Source: Promethearchaeota archaeon (GTDB lineage: Archaea > Asgardarchaeota > Lokiarchaeia > Sigyniarchaeales > SOKP01). Taken from it: a stretch of DNA of 24,000 bases. The stretch is taken from assembly GCA_048941015.1 (NCBI GenBank), contig JBHLNZ010000021.1, positions 8,263 through 32,262 of the forward strand, written 5' to 3'. The translations under genes were made by a program, and so were the position numbers. The notes under the pieces are model-generated. The model was not told the DNA's origin. It saw only the letters and a list, made by a program, of their open reading frames with translations, and did no database searches. Of this stretch, positions 887-24,000 are shown piece by piece (position 1 is the stretch's first letter; the number at the start of each line of letters is the position of its first letter).

Positions 887-1762
887 ATGGATATATATGA
901 TATATTTTTTAGTATATGTTTAGGATTATTTATAGGCGGAATTATTATGTCGATTATTTCGCTTATTCTTAGTGAAATGTCAACTCATGATCTTCAAGAT
1001 GCAGATCATATTGATCATTTTGACCATATCGATCACGTTGATCATATAGACCAGTTCGACCATATTGACCATGTGGATCATATAGACCAGTTCGACCATA
1101 TAGACCATGTAGATCATATTGACCATGTGGATCATATAGACCAGTTCGACCATATAGACCATGTAGATCACATTGACCATATGGATCACATAGACCAGTT
1201 TGATCATGTAGATCATGTAGACCACATTAACCATGTGGATCATTTTGATCATACTGATAATATCGATAATTTGGATAATTCTGACTATTCGGATCATTTA
1301 GATCATTATAGTGATACTACTCCTGCACCTTTTATGTTATTATTATCGTCATTTTTACTAATTTTTGGGATAACTGGCATTATTTTGTATTATTCAGTTT
1401 TTGGTGTAGCTAAATTTATTATTATTTTTGCAACTCCAATAATATCTTACGGTAGTACTAAATTAATATCTTATGTATGGAGAAAAATAGCAAAATCCAA
1501 ATATTACAATATCTCTGCAACATTGAATTTAATTGGGCGTGATGCGGAGGTTGTTTTAAAGGTAGATGAGATAGGAGGAGTAATAAAGATTCGCTCTGAA
1601 ACTCCAATGAAGTTCGAAAAATTGCATGCAAAACCCCTTAAAGAATCAAGTTCTTTTGAGAAGGGAACTAAAGTTTATATTTGTGATATTAAAGATGGTT
1701 ATTTATTAGTTGATAGTGATCAAAAACTAATTAAACATAGGACGATATATCGCAACAGATAA
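887..1762 (+). CDS. NfeD-like membrane protein with an inserted His/Asp tripeptide-repeat loop
   Basis: GAGGA lies 6 nt upstream of the ATG. The protein has an N-terminal TM helix, a repeat loop at aa 34-143, and two or more TM helices at aa 148-200. The C-terminal soluble segment (LIGRDAEVVLKVDEIGGVIKI...FEKGTKVYICDIKDGYLLV) matches the NfeD C-terminal OB-fold pattern. It sits directly upstream of an SPFH/flotillin gene, the classic NfeD-SPFH operon arrangement. Confidence 0.65.
   Translation: MDIYDIFFSICLGLFIGGIIMSIISLILSEMSTHDLQDADHIDHFDHIDHVDHIDQFDHIDHVDHIDQFDHIDHVDHIDHVDHIDQFDHIDHVDHIDHMDHIDQFDHVDHVDHINHVDHFDHTDNIDNLDNSDYSDHLDHYSDTTPAPFMLLLSSFLLIFGITGIILYYSVFGVAKFIIIFATPIISYGSTKLISYVWRKIAKSKYYNISATLNLIGRDAEVVLKVDEIGGVIKIRSETPMKFEKLHAKPLKESSSFEKGTKVYICDIKDGYLLVDSDQKLIKHRTIYRNR
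986..1315 (+). repeat. In-frame 9-bp (tripeptide) tandem repeat with 36/54-bp higher-order units
   Basis: Asp (once Asn) falls at every third residue from D40 to D139, giving 34 positions (HID/HVD/QFD/HFD/HMD...). The motif gatcatatagaccagttcgaccat recurs at 1040, 1076 and 1130, with a variant at 1184. The 54-bp units 1076-1129 and 1130-1183 differ at only 2 positions. Confidence 0.85.
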
Positions 1763-1868
1763 AAATCAAATTATTTTAAACAATCAGTTAAAAATGAAAG
1801 TTCAAAATCTAAAATAAAATGAATAGAGAATAAAAAAAAAATTAAAAAAAGGAGGTATTGAAAAGCAG

Positions 1869-3044
1869 ATGTTATTTCAACAGGTATATGGCTGGTTGGT
1901 AGGCGGAATTATAGCTGGAGTAATCGTATTTTTCTTATTTGTAATTTTTTTAGCTACAAGATATCGAAAATTTAAAACGAATCAATTTGTTATCCATTTA
2001 CGTAATGGTAAGGTAAAAAGTGCTGGACTTGGTGGCAGTATTTGGTTATTGCCATTAATAGATGAATATATTGTAATTCCTACTACAAGTATTCAAACAA
2101 TTTTAGAAGCCCACGAGCAAGTAGTTTCGATGGAATACCAAAATATTTCAATCGTCGGTATGTTGATTTGGAAAGTAATAGATCCTGAGAAAGCTTTTAG
2201 TGCAGTTTCCTGGGTAAATCGAGATGAACATTTCGTTGAAAAAATACTAAAGAATGCAGCAGAAGCAATTATAAGAACAACATGTGCAAATATGCCACTT
2301 GAAAAGATTATTAGAGAACGTCGAGAGATAATTGAACATGTAAGTAAAGAATTGCATGAACTTACTGCTGATTGGGGCTTAATAATTGAATCCATAGAAA
2401 TCCGAGAAGTAAATATATTAGAACCCGATCTGAAAAGGAATATGGAAGCTACTAAACAGGCAATAGAATTTCGAAAGGCCCGTATAGCTAAAGCTGAAGC
2501 AGAAAGGGAATCAAGAATGAGAGAATTAGAAGTTCAAAATGAAGTTGGGACACAGGAACAACTAGTACAAAGAGATATTGAAATACGCAGAAAAGAAAAA
2601 GAAATTGCGATAGCAGATCAAGAGCGAGAACGTAAAAAAATTGAGGCAGACGGAGACCGTCAGAAAAAAGTCATTGAAGCAGAAGCCGATGCAGCTTCTA
2701 TTAAGAAGAAATTAATAGCACAAGCTGAAGGTGAAGCTGAGACTATAAAACAGCAGATGTTAGCGCAAGCTGAGGGTTTTCAAAAACAAGTAGAAGCGAT
2801 GTCATCAGCGGATCAGAGATTTTTAGCTGTTCAGTTGACTAATATCTTACCCGAAATATTTAAAAATATTAATCCAGAGAAGATGTTTATTATGGGAACC
2901 GGCGATGAAGCTTTTAGTGCTTTATCAAGAGCAATACTCCCATTCTTACAGCTTGTGCCAGAGTATTCCGATAAAATAAAAAGATTTCTAGGAACTAGCG
3001 ATTTAACTAATATCAAAGAATTAGTAAGTAATATTTCAAAATAA
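1869..3044 (+). CDS. Flotillin-like SPFH/Band-7 domain protein
   Basis: GGAGGT lies 12 nt upstream of the ATG. The protein has an N-terminal TM anchor, then an SPFH core (IIESIEIREVNI...), then a long Ala/Glu-rich coiled coil (AKAEAERE..., IEAEADAASIKKKLIAQAEGEAETIKQQMLAQAEGF) typical of flotillins. Confidence 0.85.
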   Translation: MLFQQVYGWLVGGIIAGVIVFFLFVIFLATRYRKFKTNQFVIHLRNGKVKSAGLGGSIWLLPLIDEYIVIPTTSIQTILEAHEQVVSMEYQNISIVGMLIWKVIDPEKAFSAVSWVNRDEHFVEKILKNAAEAIIRTTCANMPLEKIIRERREIIEHVSKELHELTADWGLIIESIEIREVNILEPDLKRNMEATKQAIEFRKARIAKAEAERESRMRELEVQNEVGTQEQLVQRDIEIRRKEKEIAIADQERERKKIEADGDRQKKVIEAEADAASIKKKLIAQAEGEAETIKQQMLAQAEGFQKQVEAMSSADQRFLAVQLTNILPEIFKNINPEKMFIMGTGDEAFSALSRAILPFLQLVPEYSDKIKRFLGTSDLTNIKELVSNISK

Positions 3045-4991: not shown

Positions 4992-5064
4992 GCCTCTGTT
5001 GCTTAGCAGGTAGAGCGTTGCCTTGGTAAGGCAAAGGTCGGGGGTTCAAATCCCCCCAGGGGCT
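4992..5064 (+). tRNA. tRNA-Thr(GGU): tRNA-Thr (anticodon GGU), intron-less, no encoded CCA
   Basis: Hand-folded cloverleaf. Acceptor GCCTCTG/CAGGGGC, D arm GCTT-AGCAGGTA-GAGC, anticodon arm TTGCC-TTGGTAA-GGCAA, variable AGGTC, T arm GGGGG-TTCAAAT-CCCCC, discriminator T. Confidence 0.9.
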
Positions 5065-5089: not shown

Positions 5090-5222
5090 GCCGGTGTGGC
5101 TTAGTTGGTTATAAAGTCTATTTGAAATTAGACTTAATAGGCACCAGACTCATAATCCATCTGAAAAATTGGGTCAGAAAGATGAACTCTGGAGGTCGTG
5201 GGCTCATATCCCACCACCGGCA
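5090..5222 (+). tRNA. tRNA-Met/Ile2(CAU): tRNA with CAU anticodon (elongator Met or Ile2) interrupted by two introns
   Basis: Acceptor GCCGGTG/CACCGGC. The D stem GCTT...AAG|C is split by a ~25-nt insert (about 5117-5141) containing the hairpin GTCTA-N8-TAGAC. The anticodon arm CCAGA-CTCATAA-TCTGG is split by a ~32-nt insert (about 5156-5187) at or next to the canonical 37/38 site. T arm GTGGG-CTCATAT-CCCAC, discriminator A. Removing 57 nt gives a 76-nt cloverleaf. A G1-C72 pair and no GGG/CCC in the anticodon stem argue against an initiator. Confidence 0.65.
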
Positions 5223-11779: not shown

Positions 11780-12643
11780 TTGAGAATATATATGGGTACT
11801 CAAGTTTTTCTTATAAATCCAGATGGAACCACAACTGAAATAAAATCTGAAGGGTCAATTAAAGATGTTTTAAAAACTGAAGATTGCTATGTTCTAGTTT
11901 CTGATGATATTAGGAAGGTATATCTATGGAAAGGATTGGAGAGCAATGTGAGATCAAAGTTTATTGGTGCCAAAAGGAGCCAAGAAATACGTGGACAAGT
12001 CGGTATGCATTATGCAGTTGTTCCCCAGGATGAAGGGGATGAAGAAGCTGAATTTTTAAAATTAATAGGCGGGAAGACAGAAGGAGGTATAGCTAAAGAA
12101 ATAAAAGCAGAACAAGCGTCTGTTGCTAAACCTGCCCCATCAGTTCACCCACTGAGGGAAAAGGATACTTTTGGAGCTCCAAAGCCAGCCCAAGGTATGA
12201 ATATTGCTGGAAGTAGAGATCGTATTGCTCAAAATACAGGCCCCTTATATAGAGGACAAGAATCTATGTCTATGCTCATGGAGGACGAGGTTAAAATAAA
12301 TTTTGAACAAATAATGCAAAAATTGGAAGAAATTAAAATGCCTGATGGATTTGAAAGGGAATTAATAATTATTGGAAATCATGCTTATTCAGTTGTAGAG
12401 AGAGTACAGACCTTCTTAGGAGAGAAACAAGTAACTAAAGAAATATCGAAGGTAGGAGCTGTCCCTGAGGGAATCTTTTTTGCTGAAGATTATTCTCCAA
12501 GAATTTTATCAGAAAATGGTAAAATTCTAGCTATAGAATTCTTAAAACGGACAACTGGACCAAAAGATACTACAGTTGAATTCAAATCTAAAAAAGAAAT
12601 TTTAAAAGATCAAATAAAAACTCAGCTTGAAGGTAAAAAATAG
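11780..12643 (+). CDS. Gelsolin/cofilin-fold domain protein with an uncharacterised C-terminal domain (1DGelX-like architecture); probable start at ATG 11792
   Basis: The N-terminal ~100 aa follow the gelsolin-repeat pattern: DCYVLVSDD-IRKVYLWKGLESNVRSKFIGAKRSQEIRGQ...VVPQDEGDEEAEFLKLIGG (compare gelsolin DxYIL / IYxWxG / xxE...A / EG-E-x-F). A ~60-aa linker of disordered appearance and a ~125-aa domain without a recognised motif follow. Confidence 0.7.
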   Translation: MRIYMGTQVFLINPDGTTTEIKSEGSIKDVLKTEDCYVLVSDDIRKVYLWKGLESNVRSKFIGAKRSQEIRGQVGMHYAVVPQDEGDEEAEFLKLIGGKTEGGIAKEIKAEQASVAKPAPSVHPLREKDTFGAPKPAQGMNIAGSRDRIAQNTGPLYRGQESMSMLMEDEVKINFEQIMQKLEEIKMPDGFERELIIIGNHAYSVVERVQTFLGEKQVTKEISKVGAVPEGIFFAEDYSPRILSENGKILAIEFLKRTTGPKDTTVEFKSKKEILKDQIKTQLEGKK

Positions 12644-12860
12644 TTCCATATTTTAATCCTTCTTTTATTTATTAAGTCAATACATGTTATTAATTCATAT
12701 AGATACATATGAACCACAAATCTTTTCATTATAAAAATAGCTAAACTTTAAAACACCTTAACCTATTAGAGGTATAAATATAAGTTTTTATATCTAAAAC
12801 TTTTATTTAATATTAATTGTAAAAAAAAATGATATTAATTAATAGCTAAGGACGCGTATT

Positions 12861-13250
12861 ATGAGCGATTTAACTCCAGAAGAAGCACATTCATTATCAA
12901 AATTTCTTGGGAATATTACTGAACATACTGAACTGGAGGCTCTTGCCTTAGTGACACGTGATGGTTTACGTCTTGCTTTTTCTTGCATTCCAGATTATGA
13001 AGTCGATCCGGATCTATTTTCAAGTCTAAGTGCTGTAGTAATGCAAAGCGGACAGGATGCTATTGATTCTCTGGGTTATACTCATTTATTGGAAGTAGTT
13101 TTAAGAGGCGCAGATGCTTTTATTATTTTGAGTGCTGCTGGGAGATTCTTCTTAATGGGTGCAAGTAGAAAAATTGAAGATTTAGGTAAAATTGTAACGG
13201 TTTTTAGATATTATGCTGGAGAAATCGGGAAACGCTACCCTCTAACATAA
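12861..13250 (+). CDS. Roadblock/LC7 (MglB-like) domain protein
   Basis: A 129-aa single domain. LEALALVTRDGLRLA, an acidic loop, LLEVVLRGADAFIILSAAGRFFLMG and LGKIV follow the Roadblock/LC7 longin-like pattern. Confidence 0.75.
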   Translation: MSDLTPEEAHSLSKFLGNITEHTELEALALVTRDGLRLAFSCIPDYEVDPDLFSSLSAVVMQSGQDAIDSLGYTHLLEVVLRGADAFIILSAAGRFFLMGASRKIEDLGKIVTVFRYYAGEIGKRYPLT

Positions 13251-13364
13251 GATTTGAATTAAATGCTAATCAATCTGAATTAAGTGATTTTGAAGATATA
13301 ATAATGCTAAAAAATAAATAATACAAATTTTTAAATTGATAATTAAAAAATATAGTGACGTGAC

Positions 13365-15557
13365 ATGAGCGAAATCAAAATTTTTGTTGATGTAAATGAA
13401 GGTACCTCAAATAAAGTTGTTATTTGCCAAGAGAACGCAAACAAGTTAGGACTTTCCGAAGGTGCTTCAGTTGAAGTTGAAAATCCTGATAATAATAAAA
13501 AAGCCACTGCAACTATAGAAATTTCGAATATGGTTTTAGATTTTGCGGGACAGGTTTCAAAGAATGTTGTTGACGAATTGGAATTTGATGGTATTGAATT
13601 AATTATTCGTCCTGTTAGTAGTACTGGTCTAGCAGCTCCTAAATTACAGATACCGAAAGTTCCAACACCCAGACCGATTCCTACAACCCAACCAGGAATT
13701 TCCCAACAATCATCATTAACTCCATTACCCACACCTCCGCCTCAACCTATGCCAACTAGGCCAACACCTCAACCTAAACCGGCACCTACACCACAAGCAA
13801 CACCTATACCTGCTCATCAACCAGTTCCAAAACCTATTCCTCAACCTATGCCTATGCCTACTCCAACACCTCCACCACAGTATACTCCAGCACCTCCAGC
13901 ACCTACACCAGCACCTATCCCTCGAGTTGCTCCAATACCACCACCCCAACCAACGTATGATCAAGCTCCTACACAAGACTATAGTGTATCTTCTGTTCCT
14001 GCAGAACCATACCCTAATAAAATAGATGTCTATATGTTGCAAACTCAAAAGAATGGTATTGTTCTTAAACCCGTTGTTGATGATAATCTTGAAGGAGGAA
14101 GAGTACAAGTGAGTTCTTCCGTTATTCAACAATTAGGACTTGCTCCAGGATTACTAATTGCCTGGGAAGATCCTTTAACTCGTTCTATAGGCTCTGCTAG
14201 AATAGATCAAGCAATGGTTAATCCAGGTGAGATAAGAATGAGTAGAGATACAAAAGAAGATACAAATATCCAAGCTCAACAAATTGTAATTTATTCGACT
14301 GAACCTCCAATTCATAAAGCATCAGAATTAATGCTTGAAGTTCAATCTCAACCAAATTTAATGGGTTATTGTTTAGTTGGGCCTCGTACAATGTATACAC
14401 TATCTATTAAACAAGATGATGTTCTTGCATTTGAGGATGAACTTACAGGGGCTATAGGCGCTGGTAAAGTGGAAATTTCGGATGCCGTTCCACCTAATAG
14501 TATTGTTATCGATAGTGAGATATTAGAAGCATCTGGTATAGGAAGCTTTGAAGTTAAAGTTTCTAAAAATCTCCGTCCTATTATTCCATTACAAAATATT
14601 GCTCTTGGTATTTCTCCAATTTCAGGAGAAAATATGTGGGAAATCATAAGTACTGCTCGACAAAATGTGGATTCGTTAAAAGGATGGTTATCAAATTATA
14701 TCATCTTTAAAGGAATCAAGTTGAGATGGAATGCGGTAAACATAGCATGTTCAATAATCAGAACGGTTCCAGACTTGACTGGGGATGTCTTTGCCCAAAT
14801 TACACCAAATACCGCAATAAATTTAACGCCCACCGGATTAATACCCTTTAATGCAATTCTTATTATTGATATTAGTAGGAGCATGATGGCAAGAGATGTT
14901 TATGTGACTAATATTGCTCCTGCAATAGAAGGAATAAAAGCAGCTATGGAATCTCGAGAAATTCAAGAATTTCTAAAACATTTCAAAGCTGGAATCAATA
15001 TCCCAAGAAGAATTTCAGCAGCTTTTGCAGCGGTTTTGTTTTTAAGTGAAAAAGTTGGGAGAGGTTTTGGTGAAAAGGTCTCAATTATAAGATTTGCAGA
15101 TGAAGCACAAGTATTACCTTTTGGTGGTGGTTTCTATATGGATTCTGCTAGTGGAAAGAAAGGAATTCTTGAAGATGCAGCACGTATGATCGTTGATCGA
15201 ATAGGAAATGCTTATGGACAAGCTACCAATATGGGTCAAGCTATGATTAAAGCTCATCAAGTTTTAGCTGAGTTTGAAAAGATGAGTCCGGATCAGCCAA
15301 CAATGATCGTACTCTTAACGGATGGGATCCCTACGGATGGAGATGATTTCTTCAAATCAGTTAAAGGTTTTGCTGAGAATCCGAATGTGGTCATTTATAT
15401 AGTTGGACTAGGAAATCCTGATGATGAATTAATGATTAGAGCAGCATCGTTATGTGGTGGAGAATACTTTAAACCGGAGGATGCAGGTGAACTATTGATA
15501 TGGTATTCTAAACGAGCAAGAGATCTTACAGTTAAGTTGAAGGCGCATAAAGGTTAA
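13365..15557 (+). CDS. Multidomain protein: Cdc48-N-like barrel, Pro-rich tract, two more Cdc48-N-like barrels (+ beta-clam), C-terminal vWA domain with intact MIDAS
   Basis: vWA lies at aa ~496-715: ILIIDISRSMM (DxSxS), QATNMG (Thr) and IVLLTDGIPTDG (Asp). There are three segments of the pattern xxVxVxxxxxxxLGLxxGxxVxx...G.A.I (aa 5-85, 233-312, 323-402). They are followed by LKGWLSNYIIFKGIKLRW...IIRTVPDLTGDVFAQITPNTAINL, which resembles the Cdc48 domain-2 beta-clam. Confidence 0.8.
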   Translation: MSEIKIFVDVNEGTSNKVVICQENANKLGLSEGASVEVENPDNNKKATATIEISNMVLDFAGQVSKNVVDELEFDGIELIIRPVSSTGLAAPKLQIPKVPTPRPIPTTQPGISQQSSLTPLPTPPPQPMPTRPTPQPKPAPTPQATPIPAHQPVPKPIPQPMPMPTPTPPPQYTPAPPAPTPAPIPRVAPIPPPQPTYDQAPTQDYSVSSVPAEPYPNKIDVYMLQTQKNGIVLKPVVDDNLEGGRVQVSSSVIQQLGLAPGLLIAWEDPLTRSIGSARIDQAMVNPGEIRMSRDTKEDTNIQAQQIVIYSTEPPIHKASELMLEVQSQPNLMGYCLVGPRTMYTLSIKQDDVLAFEDELTGAIGAGKVEISDAVPPNSIVIDSEILEASGIGSFEVKVSKNLRPIIPLQNIALGISPISGENMWEIISTARQNVDSLKGWLSNYIIFKGIKLRWNAVNIACSIIRTVPDLTGDVFAQITPNTAINLTPTGLIPFNAILIIDISRSMMARDVYVTNIAPAIEGIKAAMESREIQEFLKHFKAGINIPRRISAAFAAVLFLSEKVGRGFGEKVSIIRFADEAQVLPFGGGFYMDSASGKKGILEDAARMIVDRIGNAYGQATNMGQAMIKAHQVLAEFEKMSPDQPTMIVLLTDGIPTDGDDFFKSVKGFAENPNVVIYIVGLGNPDDELMIRAASLCGGEYFKPEDAGELLIWYSKRARDLTVKLKAHKG
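13635..14015 (+). other. Proline-rich low-complexity tract (aa ~91-217) inside the vWA protein
   Basis: The stretch reads PKVPTPRPIPTTQP...PTPPPQPMPTRPTPQPKPAPTPQATPIPAHQPVPKPIPQPMPMPTPTPPPQYTPAPPAPTPAPIPRVAPIPPPQPTY. It forms a local GC-rich island (CCA/CCT codons) that generates the spurious Trp/Arg-rich antisense ORFs 13343-13732 and 13725-14132. Confidence 0.85.
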
Positions 15558-15687: not shown

Positions 15688-16098
15688 ATGAAATCAATAT
15701 TACATCATGCTCATCTTTTTGCGTCTAATCTTGATGAGAGTATCAGATTTTACCAACAAATGTTTGGAGCAGAAATTCTTTTTGATCTAGAGTTAGCAGG
15801 GGCTAGAAATGTGATGATTGCTATTGGTCCTTCAAAAATTAACTTCTACGACCAACCTCCTAGAGACAATGGTAAGGGGGCGGTCCACCATCTCGGGATC
15901 GAAACAGACGATTTAGAAGAACTCGTTGAACATATGAAAAGTAAGGGATATCAATTCAGGAAATCAATTAAACATTTAGGTGTTTTGAAGTATACTATAG
16001 CAGAAGCACCAGATCACGTACTTCTAGAACTTTTTGAAGTTGTTAAAGAAAAACTCCCTGAAGATCAATATAAATTGATCTCTAACTTTAAAACTTAA
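15688..16098 (+). CDS. VOC-family (glyoxalase / bleomycin-resistance / dioxygenase fold) protein
   Basis: The motifs HHAHLFASNLDESIRFYQQMFGAE and VHHLGIETDDLEELVEHMKSKGYQF are typical paired beta-alpha-beta-beta-beta modules with metal-ligand His/Glu. Confidence 0.8.
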   Translation: MKSILHHAHLFASNLDESIRFYQQMFGAEILFDLELAGARNVMIAIGPSKINFYDQPPRDNGKGAVHHLGIETDDLEELVEHMKSKGYQFRKSIKHLGVLKYTIAEAPDHVLLELFEVVKEKLPEDQYKLISNFKT

Positions 16099-16682: not shown

Positions 16683-17411
16683 ATGGCAAAAAAAAAAAAG
16701 AAGGATAAAGAAAAAGATCCTATTTCAGAATATTCATTAGACAGTACATTAAAATCCTCGAAAAAAACCAAAACAGATTTACAGGGATTATTAAGAGGAT
16801 TTTCTGAAGAGAAAGGATTTGGAGCACCGAAAGAAGAAGAAAGAATAAAGCCCCAATTATCATATGAGAGTAAGAAACAAATTGCTGAAGATTATATAAT
16901 GGAAGATATTCCTCTCAGTGAGAGAGAGAAGATAAAAGAAGAAAAAATTAAATTAGAGTCCGTAGAAGAAAAAGTAGTAGAGCTTAAGAAAGATGAAGAA
17001 TCTTCTTCCAAACCAATAAGTACTAAAGAAAAACCTTCTTTTTCGAAGAAAGATGATATCTATTTAAAGTTATCAAATTTTTTTGAAGAACTTTTTGTGG
17101 GTTATAATGAACGTTATGACAGATGGGAGAACTCAGTTTCAGCGTTACTTGCAATTTTAAGAAAAATGAGAAAAATAACTAAAAAAAATACTGAAGATTT
17201 AGTCTCAACAATCAATAATCAATATGAAAAAATACAAAAGAACCTTGAAGAATTTAAAATTAAGCGAGATGAGATAGAAAAAATCTCAGATGTAGATATC
17301 GAAATAATGTCAAGTGAATTTAAAAAAGTTTTGGGGTTATTAGAACTTCAAGTCAAAGAATACCAATTAAAGAAATTAACTGATGAGTATATTCATCAAT
17401 ATAAACTATAA
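16683..17411 (+). CDS. Lys/Glu-rich protein with a C-terminal helical/coiled-coil domain, hypothetical
   Basis: It starts MAKKKKKDKEKD, encoded by an A12 run. Residues ~1-125 are low-complexity K/E/S-rich. Residues ~125-242 look helical with heptad-like spacing. It lies 55 nt upstream of the actin-related gene on the same strand. Confidence 0.5.
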   Translation: MAKKKKKDKEKDPISEYSLDSTLKSSKKTKTDLQGLLRGFSEEKGFGAPKEEERIKPQLSYESKKQIAEDYIMEDIPLSEREKIKEEKIKLESVEEKVVELKKDEESSSKPISTKEKPSFSKKDDIYLKLSNFFEELFVGYNERYDRWENSVSALLAILRKMRKITKKNTEDLVSTINNQYEKIQKNLEEFKIKRDEIEKISDVDIEIMSSEFKKVLGLLELQVKEYQLKKLTDEYIHQYKL

Positions 17412-17466: not shown

Positions 17467-18621
17467 ATGAGTTTCCCCAATAAAGATCAGTTACGTCCTT
17501 TAATTCTTAATATCGGAAGTAATACTTTCAAAATGGGTTGGGCAGGAGATGATTTTCCCGATATTATCGCTCCAAGCATATATGTTGATGTTTCTGATTA
17601 CCTATATACTTCAGATGTAATTGACGGCTTAGAAGAGATTTATATTAATGAGGAAACTCAAAACCATTTGGTTGGACATCAAGCATTAAAATATCAAGAT
17701 ATCTTAAAAATTCACGAATTTAAAAAAGAAAAGAATTATAATTTGCTTACTAAATTTTTTTATTATTATTATAACCAATTAAAAATATCTTTAGAATTAC
17801 AATATAGGCAGCCACTAATTATACTTTTACCTTTTTTTAGTTCAGAATTAGAAAAAACTAAATTACAAGAAATTTTTTTCGAATCCTGTAATTTTCCAGC
17901 TATTTTATTTTTAGATGAAGCTCAAGCTATATTATCTACATTAGACAAGTCTAGTGGAGTGATTATAAATATTGGAGAATCAAATACGTATATCTCTACA
18001 ATATTTCATGGTTTTACGAATATAATGGCCCGAGATCTTTTTCCTGTAGCTGGGAAGGAATTAACAAATTATCTATTAAATTTAATTTTAGCAAGGAAAA
18101 GTTTAGTAAAAAATGTACATGTTGATAAAACTATAGCAAAAGAAGTTAAAGAAAAGTTATCTTTATGTCTTATAGATCCAGATACTGAAAAAAAAAGAGT
18201 TAAAGAAGGTTTAACTAAATATGATCGTACTATAGATCTACCAGATGGTTCTAGTTTAAAAATAAATTTAGAACGTTTTTTATTGGCAGAACCCCTATTT
18301 AATCCAAAACTTATACATATCGATTATATTGGATTAGCGGAAGCAGTATCTAAAGTGGTAAAATCCTGGGAGAGAGAAAACTGGGAAGATTTAGTGTCTA
18401 ATGTTATTTTAGCAGGTGGAGGAAGTTTAATATCTGGTCTTGATCGAAGATTAGAATTGGAATTAAAAAATTTCTTTTCAGAAAGATTAAAGCCAAAAAT
18501 AAAAGTAGTTGCTGCTTCAGGTCGAGAGAATATGGGTTGGATTGGAGCATCAATTCTTTATTCGAAGGGGCAATTACAAAAAGGTTGGGTTAAAAATCCT
18601 AATTTAGAAAATACAATTTAG
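17467..18621 (+). CDS. Actin-related protein (divergent member of the actin/Arp clade)
   Basis: The protein is colinear with eukaryotic actin throughout. [16 protein letters not shown] matches [42 protein letters not shown] matches [46 protein letters not shown] matches [21 protein letters not shown], and [10 protein letters not shown] matches VWIGGSILAS. Confidence 0.9.
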   Translation: [384 protein letters not shown]

Positions 18622-18684: not shown

Positions 18685-21273
18685 ATGACTGTTGATTTAG
18701 AGAGAAAAAAAGATTTTTTAGAAAATTTTCAAAAATATGTTATTCAAGGTAGGAAGTTATTACAATCTGCTAATCATAGATGGGCAGATCGATTATTCAC
18801 AGAATTATATTTCGAAATTGAAAAGAATGAATGGCTCGGTATACAAAGAAAGCATCAATTGATAATGATTATCTCTAACTCGTGGTGGATGTATATAAAT
18901 TCGTTAACTAAAGGAATCAATAGTCAAGCAGAAATGGATATTATTCGTTATATTGATGCGTATAAAAGATTTTTTTCTTTCTTATCGAGATTAGATGATT
19001 TCTATTTATTTAATAATTTTGCTACTAATCTTTTGAGATCATTTATTGGTTTTGAAAATTTATCTCAAAAAGGAATCACTAAATTCATTAATTCTTTTTG
19101 TGCTAAAGTTAGTGAAAGAGGAGAGTATCTTAAATTAATTGAATTGCAACTATTGTTGATGTTTTTAAGGAAATCTGTAATCCCTCAAGAGTTTTTTCAT
19201 TTTAGTATGGAGACTCTTGGAAGGACACTTTTTAAATTAGAACCGGCAAAGAGAGCTCTATTTTTATATATATTTTTGGAAAATGTTAATATTAATTATC
19301 AGCTTATTGATGACTCAGATGAATTCATCAAAATTATGAGTAAAATTTTAGTAAATCGAATTCCTAGTTATTTAAAAACTGAATTTAGCAATTTAGGTAG
19401 AATTACTATAAATCAGAGAAATTTTAATTTCATTTTAAATGATTTAGAAGATCTAATCCAATATTTAAATTATATTGGAGAAAATGTCTGGATTGCTGTT
19501 ATTATAAAAAACTTATTTTATAAAATTGAGCGATTTCAGTCGTTCGGAGATGCTGTGACATACATAAGAAAATTTATAGATTATGCAATAGCTAGAAATA
19601 GGTTTGAAATTGCCTTTGAGATATATGATTTTTTAGAAGATATTTTCTTGTCTAAAACTGATTTAGGATACGATAATATTTTAATTGAGTTATGGGTTGA
19701 AGCATGCAAGAAATTCGTAGAAATGAAAGAAAAAAAATATTTATTACAATCTCTAGAAAAATTAAATACTCATTTAAAAACGCCACAGACAAATGCACAA
19801 ATATTTCATTATTTTTATACCTGTAATTTATTATGGAAGTTTAAATCTATGTTCTTTTCTTTGGAACAAAGAGATTTTTGGCGAATGATGTTTTATCGAG
19901 CTCTTTTTGAAGAAAAAGACTATGATTTAGCAAGAAAAATATGTCCATATCTTGATAAGAATATTGGGTCTCAAATAGTTGATCCATCTATATTATTCCG
20001 GGAAAGCCAGGAGTTGCAAAAAGAGATATATTCCTTTAAAAATGAGGAGAATTTTTCTGAATTAGAGACTATGGCTTTTATTATAAAACAAATTATATTT
20101 CGAATAAATTCAGATGGGTTAATTTCATTTAGGATGATTTCTCAAGATAATGCTATGTTAGAAGGTAAAATTTCTGATGAGTTTTGGAATGATGCTCAAA
20201 TAAATGAAATATATTACGATCTTTTTAACCTTAATGAAGTAAAAAAGTTTGATTTTACATTGAAAGAATTTGGAAAATTACTATATATCTTTTTACCAAA
20301 AAAGATAAGGTATTTTTTCAAACATTTTGAGATTAAAGCACTTGATTTTGTACCGGAAATATATTTTATATTGGATCAGATGGCTGTGCCATTTGAAATG
20401 ATTTATGATAATAATTTTTTTTTGTTAAAATATTCTATAGGGTATATAATTGGGGAACCTCCTTTAGGTGGAGTCACTTTTGGATATGAAGACTCCTTAG
20501 AAGAACAAGCGGCTGTGAAAAAAAATAAATTCAATGTGCTAATTATTGAATGCACTAATTCCAAAAATCCTTTAAAATGGAATGAAGAGTCAAAATCAAA
20601 AGAAATTGTTTTTCCTTTCACGGCAGGCATTAATGAATTAAACTATATTATTGAATTTTTTAATAATAGGGAAGAAATAGATCAATTCACCATACTCTCT
20701 GGAGATTACTCTACTAAGGAAAACATTTTATCCAAAATTTTAGAAAGTAATAATCATATAATTCATTTTGTTGGTAATATATTTTATTCAAAATGGAATC
20801 CACAAGATAGCTTTATGATTACAAATGATAATGAAATATTAACATTTAGGAGCATAAATAAGGCAATTGAACAAAATCAATATATAAATGAAACACTTCT
20901 GTTTTTCAATTCTCAGGTGTTCGATGTAAAAGGAGAAAAATTACAGAATGTCTTGAGACCATTTGGAGAAATTGCCCAAAATTTTAATTATAATAAAATA
21001 ACAGGAATAATTTCACGAAATTATCCTATTTTCGATGATGAAACTAAAGAGATTAGTGCTAACTTTTATATACACTTATTCAAGAATTATAGTCAAGGAA
21101 TTGCTCTTTTGAAAGCAAGACAAGAATGCATGGCTAAAAAGATGACTAAACTTGTCGAGGAAAAATTTCAAACTCTAAGTGAAGAAGAAGGAATTATTAA
21201 CATTGATTTAGAGAGCTCTTTAGCAATTTCAAGTTACATACTCTTTGGAAAACCTTGGAAAACTATCATTTGA
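18685..21273 (+). CDS. Large helical-repeat (TPR-like) protein with a C-terminal CHAT (caspase-like, clan CD) domain lacking the canonical His/Cys dyad
   Basis: The C-terminal ~340 aa follow the CHAT profile. LGKLLYIFLPKKIRYFF...ALDFVPEIYFILDQMAVPFEMIY and NHIIHFVGNIFYS match the position of the xHxaxHG motif. NETLLFFNSQVFD matches the position of vvLsaCxs. YPIFDDETKEISANFYIHLFKNYSQGIALLKARQ matches WpvdDxxaxxlmxxFYxxLxxGxsxaeALrxAq. The N-terminal ~520 aa are all-helical and repeat-like. Confidence 0.7.
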   Translation: MTVDLERKKDFLENFQKYVIQGRKLLQSANHRWADRLFTELYFEIEKNEWLGIQRKHQLIMIISNSWWMYINSLTKGINSQAEMDIIRYIDAYKRFFSFLSRLDDFYLFNNFATNLLRSFIGFENLSQKGITKFINSFCAKVSERGEYLKLIELQLLLMFLRKSVIPQEFFHFSMETLGRTLFKLEPAKRALFLYIFLENVNINYQLIDDSDEFIKIMSKILVNRIPSYLKTEFSNLGRITINQRNFNFILNDLEDLIQYLNYIGENVWIAVIIKNLFYKIERFQSFGDAVTYIRKFIDYAIARNRFEIAFEIYDFLEDIFLSKTDLGYDNILIELWVEACKKFVEMKEKKYLLQSLEKLNTHLKTPQTNAQIFHYFYTCNLLWKFKSMFFSLEQRDFWRMMFYRALFEEKDYDLARKICPYLDKNIGSQIVDPSILFRESQELQKEIYSFKNEENFSELETMAFIIKQIIFRINSDGLISFRMISQDNAMLEGKISDEFWNDAQINEIYYDLFNLNEVKKFDFTLKEFGKLLYIFLPKKIRYFFKHFEIKALDFVPEIYFILDQMAVPFEMIYDNNFFLLKYSIGYIIGEPPLGGVTFGYEDSLEEQAAVKKNKFNVLIIECTNSKNPLKWNEESKSKEIVFPFTAGINELNYIIEFFNNREEIDQFTILSGDYSTKENILSKILESNNHIIHFVGNIFYSKWNPQDSFMITNDNEILTFRSINKAIEQNQYINETLLFFNSQVFDVKGEKLQNVLRPFGEIAQNFNYNKITGIISRNYPIFDDETKEISANFYIHLFKNYSQGIALLKARQECMAKKMTKLVEEKFQTLSEEEGIINIDLESSLAISSYILFGKPWKTII

Positions 21274-21357: not shown

Positions 21358-21897
21358 TTGTCAGATAGATTATTAGAACTTAGGATAGAAAATCAAAGAT
21401 TAAAAGAACAAGTTCAAGATTTAGAATCGAAAGTATTATCTTTAGTTGGTATGACTCATTTAGAATCCTCTGGGGGCCAGCAAAAGAAAGATATATTAAA
21501 TCAACACATCATTGAGTTGATTTATTCAACAAATACACAATTAAATATAGTTTCTCCAAAAATTGATAAATTTTATGCTACTGAAATCAAGAATTTAGTA
21601 CAAAAAGGGATTCCTGTTTTAATTATTACAAATGATAGAGGCTCCATTCCAAAAGGATACCAAGAAATTTATGATGAAATTAAGTTGTTTCAATCAGTTA
21701 AAATAATAAATAATCCAAATGTTAGATATTTATTAGTTTTTAACTCTAAAGAAGCAATTTATTCTGGAGGTTCATTAGATAAAGAAGAGTTAGAGAAAAC
21801 AATATTAATTATGACAAAAGTAAAAGAATCCACTCAATTAAGAAAAATTGCTGAAATATTTAGTCAAATGTTACCCTCTTTTATGAGAAAAGGATAG
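21358..21897 (+). CDS. Small protein: N-terminal coiled coil + degenerate PLD/TrmB-C-like domain, hypothetical
   Basis: TTG start. The N-terminus LLELRIENQRLKEQVQDLESKVLSL looks like a leucine-zipper. LNIVSPKIDKFYATEIKNLVQKGIPVLIITN ... VRYLLVFNSKEAIYSGGSLD parallels the PLD repeat (i.i.sPy...l..a..rGV.V.il ... HxKxxxxD...a.iGS.N), but the H, K, D and N positions are substituted. Confidence 0.35.
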   Translation: MSDRLLELRIENQRLKEQVQDLESKVLSLVGMTHLESSGGQQKKDILNQHIIELIYSTNTQLNIVSPKIDKFYATEIKNLVQKGIPVLIITNDRGSIPKGYQEIYDEIKLFQSVKIINNPNVRYLLVFNSKEAIYSGGSLDKEELEKTILIMTKVKESTQLRKIAEIFSQMLPSFMRKG

Positions 21898-21980: not shown

Positions 21981-22118
21981 ATGGTGGAAAATTCTGTAAA
22001 AAAAGAAAAACAAAAGAAGAAGAATAAGATAGAAGAAGATGAGAAAAATACAAATTCTGATCATGATTTTGATTGGGATTGGATCTTTGATAAAGAATGG
22101 TTGAGAACAAAAAAGTAA
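21981..22118 (+). CDS. Possible 45-aa ORF (Lys/Glu-rich N-terminus, acidic-aromatic DHDFDWDWIFDKEW C-terminus) overlapping the methyltransferase start
   Basis: The ORF runs from ATG 21981 to TAA 22116-22118 and is below the ORF-track size cut-off. Its 3' end overlaps the next ORF (ATG 22097) by 22 nt. There is no family assignment, and it could be non-coding. Confidence 0.25.
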   Translation: MVENSVKKEKQKKKNKIEEDEKNTNSDHDFDWDWIFDKEWLRTKK

Positions 22119-24000
22119 TAAATTCGGAAAGAATTACAGAAATTTTTGGCCTAAAGTCTGAAATCTATAATGAAATAATGAAATCTTTTGAAAAAGAACT
22201 CGTTAATGAAAAAGATCTATTTCTAAAGAAATATAATAATTGGAATTTGTTATTTAAAAATATTTTTGGAAGCCAAATTGAAAGAACGCTATTTCTAAAA
22301 CAAACCTATCTTTCTCAGATATTGAAAATTTTAATATTATTTAAATTAAAAAATGATACAGATGTGAATCAATTTTGTGATGCCTATAAATTCTATAACT
22401 TAGAAGAGTATGGTTTAATTGAGTTAAAGTACTTTAATTGGATTGAAATAAATGAACAAATTATAAAAAAGATCTATAATATTTTAAACAAATCGGATTT
22501 CTCTAACGAAGATTTATTTCATGAAGTATACCAAGATATCTTTTCTTCCAAAATACGTCATAAAGCTGGAGAGTTTTATACGATTCCTCTTTTGGTCAAT
22601 AAAATGGTCAATGATGTTTATAAGTTTGGAATGAGAGTATTAGATCCTTCCTGTGGTTCAGGAAGCTTCTTAATACAAATAATAATAAGTATTTTAAAAT
22701 CTCAAATGCCATTTAAGGACAAAATTGATGCGATTAATAATGTTTATGGTTTCGATGTTAATCCTTTAGCAATATTAACAGCGAAATCAAATATTCTTTT
22801 ATTTTTTTTAAGTCAATTTGATCTAAAAAGTAATTCAATCCCTAAAATCAATATATTTTTACTTGATTCTCTTTTTCCTGAAGATTTTGAAAAAAATTCT
22901 TCAATAAATCTGAAAAAATTATATTCGAGTTTTGATCTCGCAATAGGGAACCCTCCTTGGTTAACTTATAAAGATATTAATAATTCGAATTATCAAAAAA
23001 AAATTAGATTATTAGCTGAATCTTTAAATATTAAACCTCGTAGTCAATATATCACCCATATTGAATTAGCATCAATTTTTTTTTATGCTATCCCTTTAAA
23101 ATTTTTAAAAATGGGGGGAGAAATATTATTCGTCATAACGAAAAGTGTATTGAATGGGGATCATTGCTTTAAATTCAGGAGTTTTTCTATATTTGAAAAC
23201 TTAGAAATTTGGGATTTCCCCAAGAATTATTTTTTTAATGTCGATCATATTTGCTTGAAAGCAAAGTTTGTTGGAGCTGGAAAGAGACAGTCAATTTCAT
23301 CCAAATACCCGATTAACTCTAAAATTTTTAATGATAAACTCGAATTACAAAATACTATCAAATATACAAGTATAAAATGTGAAGAGGATGGAGCAAAAAT
23401 TATTCTTCCCGAATATGAAGTTAAAAGATTAAATGAACTTAGAAAAAGTCCTTATAAGGAAAAGTTTCTCCAAGGAGCTACTTTAGTTCCAAGAACTCTC
23501 GTTTTCTTCGAAATAAATGATAAAAATAATCAATATCTAAAAATTTCTTCTGATAGTGATATTCTTTTACGTGCTAAAAAAAAATGGAAGTTCACTTTTA
23601 AAAACGTTGAGATTGAAAATAGATTTAGATTTAAATCCTTTTTAAATATGGATTTAATTCCTTTTCTTATAAAAAAATATCGAAATGTTTTTTTACCTAT
23701 TAATTCTGAATTTGAGTTTAAAATTGAGTTTCTTAAAAAAAATCCAAAAGCATTTATATTCTATAATAAATTGAATGATTTTTATAAAAGAAACAAAAAA
23801 AGCACAAGTAATATCAATACATTATTTGAAAATTTGAACTATTGGAATAAACTTACAAAACAATTTAAGAATAAGAAATATATTGTTGTATATAATGCTA
23901 GTGGTTCAAATTTAAAAGCTGCTGTAATAAATAATGAAAAAAAAAATATTGTTATTGACTCAGAAAATTATTATCTCTCAACAGATTCTTTAAATGAAGC
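22097..24000 (+). CDS. N6-adenine DNA methyltransferase, Eco57I/TaqI-like gamma class (possibly type IIG/IIL or BREX PglX-like); 3' partial, runs off the window
   Basis: This ORF was hand-translated and is not in the supplied track. It is uninterrupted from ATG 22097 (in-frame TAA at 22091) to the window end, more than 634 codons. It has motif X/AdoMet region AGEFYTIPLLVNKMV, motif I VLDPSCGSGSFL and motif IV FDLAIGNPPW. The N-terminal ~150 aa is a helical domain, and the long C-terminal region is consistent with a target-recognition domain. Confidence 0.85.
   Translation, partial: MVENKKVINSERITEIFGLKSEIYNEIMKSFEKELVNEKDLFLKKYNNWNLLFKNIFGSQIERTLFLKQTYLSQILKILILFKLKNDTDVNQFCDAYKFYNLEEYGLIELKYFNWIEINEQIIKKIYNILNKSDFSNEDLFHEVYQDIFSSKIRHKAGEFYTIPLLVNKMVNDVYKFGMRVLDPSCGSGSFLIQIIISILKSQMPFKDKIDAINNVYGFDVNPLAILTAKSNILLFFLSQFDLKSNSIPKINIFLLDSLFPEDFEKNSSINLKKLYSSFDLAIGNPPWLTYKDINNSNYQKKIRLLAESLNIKPRSQYITHIELASIFFYAIPLKFLKMGGEILFVITKSVLNGDHCFKFRSFSIFENLEIWDFPKNYFFNVDHICLKAKFVGAGKRQSISSKYPINSKIFNDKLELQNTIKYTSIKCEEDGAKIILPEYEVKRLNELRKSPYKEKFLQGATLVPRTLVFFEINDKNNQYLKISSDSDILLRAKKKWKFTFKNVEIENRFRFKSFLNMDLIPFLIKKYRNVFLPINSEFEFKIEFLKKNPKAFIFYNKLNDFYKRNKKSTSNINTLFENLNYWNKLTKQFKNKKYIVVYNASGSNLKAAVINNEKKNIVIDSENYYLSTDSLNE

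Follow-up and report, generated by a model that had tools for sequence, protein, structure and literature searches.

The stretch of DNA analysed here (contig JBHLNZ010000021.1; referred to throughout as the window, 24,000 nucleotides at its full length) comes from an Asgard genome of the Loki type within Promethearchaeota, and contains a gene whose product joins an N-terminal helical-repeat solenoid resembling tetratricopeptide repeats (TPR) to a C-terminal CHAT domain. The open reading frame, which a first-pass annotation had proposed from the letters of the window, proved genuine, and the identical protein (100%) is on deposit as a hypothetical protein from a metagenome-assembled genome (MAG) of Promethearchaeota. 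G+C content across the window ranges from 25% to 38%. The CHAT domain carries Asn698 and Gln744 in the two columns that hold the catalytic His and Cys of active CHAT proteases, and the gene is part of a four-gene block encoding, in order, a 242-amino-acid protein, an actin-related protein (ARP), the catalytically dead TPR-like-CHAT protein, and a 179-amino-acid PLD-like protein (Table 1).

Table 1. Coordinates of the CHAT-like gene, its domains and dyad columns, and the adjoining genes in the window (aa, amino acids; pLDDT, predicted local distance difference test).
Feature	Position	Strand	Basis
Full open reading frame, TPR-like solenoid plus catalytically dead CHAT domain	18685..21273	+	ATG start, 862 aa plus stop
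Residues 1-445, all-alpha TPR-like helical-repeat solenoid	18685..20019	+	AlphaFold2 model, Foldseek
Residues 467-568, CHAT N-terminal lobe (beta-meander and helices)	20083..20388	+	Model, hhalign
Residues 569-611, variable loop between CHAT N-lobe and caspase-like core	20389..20517	+	pLDDT <50 in both models
Residues 612-862, predicted caspase-hemoglobinase-fold core of CHAT	20518..21270	+	Foldseek; hhalign 99.9%
Asn698 (aat), catalytic His column	20776..20778	+	HMM and profile-profile alignment
Ser743 (tct), variable small residue preceding the Cys column	20911..20913	+	Alignments
Gln744 (cag), catalytic Cys column	20914..20916	+	HMM and profile-profile alignment
ARP, 384 aa, invariant upstream partner gene	17467..18621	+	Pfam Actin, 172 bits
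242-aa protein, first gene of the four-gene core block	16683..17411	+	Homologues in close and distant loci
179-aa PLD-like protein, last gene of the core block	21358..21897	+	Homologues; weak PLDc_2 match in homologues
AbrB/MazE-ACT small regulator-like protein, 133 aa	16249..16650	+	Pfam; kept in related loci

The CHAT homology of the C-terminal half is secure, and the protein is a member of the CHAT family (PF12770), as had been recognised from the letters. The Pfam profile scores this copy below its gathering score of 24 (20.2 bits, E = 4.5e-4, residues 567-819 against profile positions 37-270), but it matches 34 of 43 family members, with a best E-value of 1.6e-8, and a profile-profile comparison with hhalign between the C-terminal half of the family and 45 canonical CHAT domains gave a probability of 99.9% with an E-value of 5e-34 over 309 aligned columns. 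A search of 1.84 billion representative proteins with the family profile also retrieved approximately 60 canonical CHAT proteins, at E-values from 1e-8 to 1e-3 and at profile positions of about 650-820. Because neither the single protein nor the 43-member family profile found a CHAT, Csx29, or separase match among PDB sequences, the link to CHAT required profile-profile comparison together with a profile of canonical CHAT domains. Features shared with canonical CHAT domains include the motifs hhhHhxG-x, NPxxS (of which P706 and S709 are part), and PhhFhN-x-x, the FY..L and AL..AR helices, and the W..F.L.GdP end. The N-lobe lines up with the N-terminal region of canonical CHAT domains and bears the conserved motifs FGxLLYxFLPxxIR and PFExIYD, and the loop that follows it is unconserved in the family alignment and probably disordered.

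Alignments made with a hidden Markov model (HMM) and by profile-profile comparison agreed on both dyad columns and were ungapped around both motifs. In the catalytic His column, canonical IIHYAGH lies over IIHFVGN, so that the column reads Asn698, and this assignment, like the codons given for Asn698 and Ser743, stands as first proposed. The cysteine column had been placed at Ser743, which is off by one residue: canonical PLVFLNAC lies over PFLFFNSQ without gaps, the Cys column is Gln744, and Ser743 matches the small residue (Ala, Ser, or Gly) found immediately before the Cys of canonical CHAT domains. The spacing between the two columns is consequently 46 residues, not the 45 noted earlier. 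These columns were anchored to experiment by comparing a profile of 20 canonical matches, with invariant His and Cys, against PDB sequences, where it reached SAVED-CHAT, DdvA, Csx29, and yeast separase (E = 1.7e-5). In the alignment to Csx29 (8d9g_A), the profile His falls on the first aligned residue and the Cys 42 residues further on; the same stretch starts at residue 585 in the full-length Csx29 chains 7x8a_D and 7y83_D, which places the two at His585 and Cys627. The catalytic dyad of TPR-CHAT (Csx29) is H585/C627, and C627A and C627S each abolish Csx30 cleavage (PMC9729208). By alignments anchored to this pair, the His-Cys dyad of active CHAT proteases is absent from the protein in the window and from the whole family, and inspection of the dyad columns revealed no different, conserved His and Cys occupying the catalytic positions. 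With Asn698 in place of the catalytic His and Gln744 in place of the Cys, the protein is very probably a pseudo-protease, and the whole family with it, in which the CHAT fold and its structural motifs appear to have been kept while the cysteine-protease chemistry was lost.

A protein search returned 263 proteins, the best 120 of which are 60-100% identical to the query over its full length. Among these 120, Asn698 is present in all and Gln744 in 119, and position 743 is Ser in 78, Thr in 20, Ala in 15, and Cys or Gly in three each. A locus scan, which took one genome per GTDB species with the close-family alignment as query, yielded 88 relatives, 80 loci of which were kept. In the 78 species-level loci that cover the region, both Asn698 and Gln744 are invariant (78/78 each), with position 743 reading S47/A17/T12/V1/G1. 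Of the Asn/Ser pair whose conservation had been in question, the Asn is thus conserved and the Ser is variable, with Gln744 conserved instead. The His-Cys dyad is also missing from each of the 15 more distant relatives of full length (17-45% identity, 830-911 amino acids), in which the His column is Asn, Tyr, Val, Ser, or Thr and the Cys column Gln, Arg, Lys, or Leu. Because distant relatives and all close members are without the dyad, its loss is old and family-wide rather than sporadic. The residues of the CHAT half that are invariant across the deep family (N625, P629, W632, P706, G805, A811, and G855) are of structural types, and no alternative catalytic set of His, Cys, Ser, or Asp occurs among them. 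His691, His694, and Cys815 were considered as alternative catalytic residues and rejected, as they are unconserved across the family.

Purifying selection on both halves of the protein is clear and strong. Relative to an 84%-identical homologue, the ratio of nonsynonymous to synonymous substitution rates (dN/dS) is 0.079/1.24 = 0.064, an approximate value because dS is high, with 0.056 for residues 1-460, the more conserved half, and 0.068 for residues 461-862. Mean column identity across the 43 family members is 71%, and every one of the 78 species-level loci has an unbroken full-length reading frame, bar one in-frame stop in one tblastn match. The earlier suggestion of a pseudo-protease used as a binding module fits these results well: both dyad columns are non-catalytic and conserved, the loss extends down to 17-25% identity, and dN/dS is about 0.06. 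With one evidently mislabelled contig aside, the family is confined to contigs labelled Promethearchaeota, and two word-indexed protein searches for further members of the distant clades found only two proteins and one protein, respectively. The exceptional contig (L070, DATKTW010000028.1), labelled 'Candidatus Nanopelagicaceae bacterium' (an actinobacterium), has the Asgard block, which there extends from the gelsolin-like gene as far as the methyltransferase gene and includes a gene for a CHAT-like protein 68% identical to that of the window; it was probably mis-binned. Several MAGs labelled Odin-, Thor-, Hod-, or Hermodarchaeota contain copies 57-84% identical in the same synteny, and these labels look doubtful.

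An AlphaFold2 model built from the family alignment has a mean pLDDT of 80.7 and a predicted template modelling score (pTM) of 0.64. Residues 1 to approximately 445 are modelled as about 22 helices forming a repeat solenoid, mostly at pLDDT 85-95, and residues 612-862 as an alternating beta/alpha core; a second model of residues 460-862 has a pLDDT of 72.0. The best full-length Foldseek match in the PDB is DdvA (8rot, E = 7e-7), with further whole-chain matches to Csx29/TPR-CHAT (8d9f), SAVED-CHAT (8tl0), caspase-9, and human and yeast separase (9hma, 5u1s, and 7nj1, E-values from 6e-5 to 1e-3). The CHAT half alone matches SAVED-CHAT best (8tl0, E = 2e-5), followed by Csx29, caspase-9, metacaspases, and caspase-3. 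These fold matches have probabilities of 0.9-1.0, but the TM-scores are modest (0.26-0.46 on the target), and the C-terminal half is predicted on this basis to have the caspase-hemoglobinase fold. The solenoid matches the TPR proteins LGN/Pins, Rap, and KLC2 (probability 0.7-1.0), as well as the helical parts of DdvA, Csx29, and separase. The TPR label given earlier may accordingly hold at the level of the fold, through the matches to LGN and others, but not at the level of sequence, as no Pfam TPR match at E <= 10 was found in the 862-residue protein.

The most informative feature of the locus is the invariant coupling of the CHAT-like gene to an ARP gene. In the window, this ARP gene is the upstream neighbour on the same strand, separated by a 63-nucleotide gap. 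In comparisons with PDB sequences, full-length matches of its product score only 146 bits for the HC1 actin and approximately 130 bits for eukaryotic actins, and among close loci the product is 57-81% identical, as divergent as the CHAT-like protein itself. 'Ca. L. ossiferum' possesses Lokiactin together with three ARP-group homologues (PMC9834061), and judged by its sequence, the upstream gene fits the Asgard ARP type rather than canonical Lokiactin. Gene order was counted in loci with enough upstream flank, namely 79 close and nine distant ones. All 79 close loci have the genes for the 242-amino-acid protein, the ARP, and the CHAT-like protein in this order on a single strand, with 1-51 nucleotides between the ARP stop and the CHAT-like start; the MazE/ACT gene upstream and the 179-amino-acid protein gene downstream are present wherever the flanks reach, with the exception of one locus (L002) in which no gene for the latter was detected. 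Among the distant relatives, an Actin-family gene lies directly upstream in nine of nine loci, with a gap of at most 5 nucleotides or an overlap of 4-11 nucleotides. Because the nine distant contigs span 30-67% G+C, these relatives come from well-separated lineages. A gene for a protein of 213-277 amino acids is located upstream in eight of the nine, and one for a protein of about 170 amino acids nearby downstream in seven. With junctions that often abut or overlap, the ARP and CHAT-like pair is probably co-translated.

The distant blocks correspond to that of the window protein by protein. Sequence comparison of five distant loci (L082-L086) with the window showed homology of the ARP and of the CHAT-like protein in every case, and of the 242- and 179-amino-acid proteins in the four loci that carry them (E-values from 1e-19 to 1e-61). 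Scores between the window ARP and its distant counterparts are 158-198 bits, higher than those between the window ARP and actin, and since these counterparts are closer to it than actin is, the ARPs that precede dead-CHAT genes appear to form an orthologous group of their own. The 242-amino-acid protein matches no Pfam family above threshold, and its homologues in distant loci (L082-L085) were found at E-values from 1e-19 to 1e-25. The 179-amino-acid protein has an N-terminal coiled coil and a PLD-like body, with a weak DrmC-like PLD match (E = 0.003). In the nine proteins of this type compared (from the window, L001, L082-L085, and L087-L089), the HKD motif (HxKxxxxD) is absent from all and the C-terminal tail LPSFMR is invariant, so far as sequence goes a pattern that may mark a second pseudo-enzyme in the block. 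In four distant loci (L082, L084, L087, and L089), the gene for the ~170-amino-acid protein is followed by one for a protein of 409-417 amino acids without a Pfam match, which is absent from the window and may be a fifth block member in those lineages.

Further upstream, the window carries AbrB/MazE-ACT, glyoxalase, VWA, Roadblock/LC7, gelsolin-like, and YjeF genes. The gelsolin-like gene (a sub-threshold match to Pfam Gelsolin), the Roadblock/LC7 gene, and a gene for a 730-amino-acid VWA protein cluster behind YjeF at 11780-15557 (+). The Loki-type clade and one distant locus retain the MazE/ACT gene ahead of the block; the methyltransferase, gelsolin-like, Roadblock, and VWA genes accompany the block in the Loki-type clade only and not in the distant lineages. 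No counterpart of the glyoxalase-family gene (15688-16098, +) is present in the 80 related loci, and the spacing between the VWA and MazE/ACT genes varies by several kilobases among loci; this site is therefore a variable insertion point. Downstream of the block, a gene for an N6-adenine DNA methyltransferase (type IIG/MmeI/MAD2-like) begins at 22094 (+) and runs off the window end at position 24000. It is kept in most Loki-type loci, and in two of them it lies on the opposite strand and is approximately 31% identical. Elsewhere in the window, a tRNA-Thr(GGT) gene (4992-5064, +) is followed 26 nucleotides on by a 133-nucleotide Rfam tRNA match (5090-5222, +) that ARAGORN did not call and that is probably an intron-containing archaeal tRNA. 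Two genes lie at 887-3044 (+), the first for a membrane protein that matches the YqiJ N-terminal profile below threshold and is possibly NfeD-like, the second for a flotillin-like protein of the SPFH/Band 7 type; NfeD-like and SPFH/Band 7 genes are a classic membrane-scaffold pair.

Taken as a whole, we favour, at a probability of about 0.7, the reading that the protein is a non-catalytic scaffold or regulator, composed of a solenoid and a dead caspase-like domain, that acts with the ARP. For the more specific proposition that it forms part of a complex with the neighbouring ARP, gene order suggests odds slightly better than even. The dead CHAT protein would most likely serve as a stoichiometric, non-catalytic scaffold or regulator of the ARP or of an ARP-containing complex, and might bind the ARP, the two small proteins of the block, or all of these through its solenoid and its vestigial substrate groove, which would give it a cytoskeletal role. 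TPR-type repeats typically bind peptides or C-terminal tails, separase holds securin in its groove, and Csx29 docks on Cas7-11. The LPSFMR tail of the 179-amino-acid protein is a possible peptide ligand, offered here as an idea rather than a result. Several points weigh against the scaffold reading. The ARP link is drawn entirely from gene order and probable co-translation, and the absence of catalysis is deduced from sequence. The Loki-type clade shows no variation at Asn698 and Gln744, so the two residues matter there, and the same columns vary in deeper relatives (N/Y/V/S/T and Q/R/K/L, respectively). The 63-nucleotide gap in the window would also leave room for a separate promoter.

The alternative that survives best, itself unlikely, is that the protein is indeed a non-catalytic scaffold but works with a partner other than the ARP, for example in signalling of the small GTPase/Roadblock type, its adjacency to the ARP gene reflecting shared regulation or history. 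In the Loki-type clade, the upstream genes include those for Roadblock/LC7, gelsolin-like, and VWA proteins, one distant locus (L082) has an Arf-family GTPase gene nearby, and it is gene order that points to the ARP. However, only the genes for the ARP and for the 242- and 179-amino-acid proteins stay attached in the distant lineages, where the nine tight or overlapping junctions between the ARP and CHAT-like genes are typical of co-translated subunits.

It is highly unlikely that the protein is still an enzyme, whether with a relocated or different active site or with an unusual Asn/Gln chemistry. The invariance of Asn698 and Gln744 in the Loki-type clade goes beyond a merely tolerated substitution, and several more polar residues are invariant there, but columns 698 and 744 vary in distant relatives, the wider-family invariant residues of the CHAT half offer structural types in place of a catalytic set, and the conservation of P706 and S709 is explained by the NPxxS motif common to canonical CHAT domains. 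Smaller still is the chance that the protein is an antiviral defence component, like many CHAT proteins (Craspase and SAVED-CHAT, for example). The closest solved folds are those of defence-linked CHAT proteins, a type IIG/MAD2-like N6-adenine methyltransferase is encoded downstream, and the 179-amino-acid protein has its weak DrmC-like match; against these, neither the CHAT-like protein nor the ARP nor the 242-amino-acid protein is matched by a PADLOC model, the methyltransferase is unlinked in distant lineages, the would-be effector protease is dead, and the synteny with housekeeping genes (YjeF and others) is fixed in the 80 loci kept, unlike that of patchy defence islands.

An active clan-CD protease with Ser743 as nucleophile and Asn698 or a nearby His as helper, the other possibility raised by the first-pass annotation, is barely credible. 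Ser743 adjoins the Cys column, and Asn698 has two His residues (His691 and His694) shortly before it, but Ser743 is one residue short of that column and is replaced by Thr, Ala, Cys, Gly, or Val in about a third of close homologues, neither His is conserved in the best 120 proteins (H94/Q15/other at 691 and H66/V29/I24 at 694), and a Ser at the true nucleophile position of Csx29 (C627S) abolishes activity (PMC9729208). A decaying former protease gene without function, which the loss of both catalytic residues might suggest, can be dismissed given the intact frames, the dN/dS of about 0.06, and the 71% mean column identity described above.

The protein is homologous to the CHAT proteases and resembles Csx29 and, more loosely, separase in joining a solenoid to such a domain, but it lacks the catalytic feature that defines them. 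Csx29/TPR-CHAT of type III-E CRISPR (Craspase) has a comparable layout, with an N-terminal TPR-type helical repeat followed by a C-terminal CHAT domain, and its structures are matched in Foldseek (8d9f, 8eey, and 7y84). Unlike Csx29, the Asgard protein has Asn and Gln in place of H585 and C627, has no TPR recognisable in its sequence, and is encoded by an Asgard core gene coupled to an ARP; no cas genes (Cas7-11 or Csx30/31) were found beside it in about 90 loci. DdvA (8rot/8rw5) is the best full-length structural match and SAVED-CHAT (8tl0) the best at domain level, but both keep His and Cys in the dyad columns of the profile alignment, and their partner domains and biology differ: DdvA is a transmembrane anti-sigma factor concerned with sigma-factor release, and SAVED-CHAT bears a SAVED domain and belongs to CBASS. 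Separase (C50) likewise has a caspase-like domain behind a large helical solenoid. This resemblance is at the level of the fold only, with low TM-scores of 0.1-0.2, and the family profile found no separase among PDB sequences at E <= 10. Unlike separase, the Asgard protein is 862 rather than 1400-2100 amino acids long, has no active domain, and has no gene link to cohesin or kleisin.

Separase also carries a non-catalytic pseudo-protease domain, and securin is a pseudosubstrate bound in its groove; by analogy, securin-bound separase suggests a plausible way in which the groove of a dead CHAT domain might be used. The pseudo-protease domain of separase and the pseudo-caspase cFLIP embody the same concept, in which the caspase fold is kept, the catalytic residues are lost, and a regulatory or binding role remains. 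Both of these pair with an active paralogue. By contrast, the Asgard protein represents a separate lineage within the clan, has no linked active paralogue, and has an actin-family ATPase as its suggested partner. At least one database record names a family member 'CHAT domain-containing protein'; for annotation, the family should be described as a CHAT-superfamily pseudo-protease and not as a protease. No publication on the protein family or its ARP link was found in a search that covered few subscription journals.

Lokiactin, profilin, and gelsolin aside, no roles have to our knowledge been established for the several ARPs of Asgard archaea. A probably co-translated, invariant partner of one ARP group offers a concrete handle on this question through a defined set of four proteins. 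The family also adds an ancient and selectively kept pseudo-enzyme branch to the CHAT/separase/caspase clan, and its separase-like architecture bears on the use of solenoid-plus-caspase scaffolds before or outside proteolysis. A more far-reaching and tentative possibility is that the four-gene block encodes a new, Asgard-specific ARP-containing complex in which the solenoid and dead-caspase scaffold holds or regulates the ARP, where it might control the nucleotide state, polymerisation, or attachment of the ARP. If true, Asgard archaea would possess in this complex a counterpart, in principle, of the ARP complexes of eukaryotes, and the scaffold would represent the first clan-CD pseudo-protease recruited to the actin cytoskeleton.

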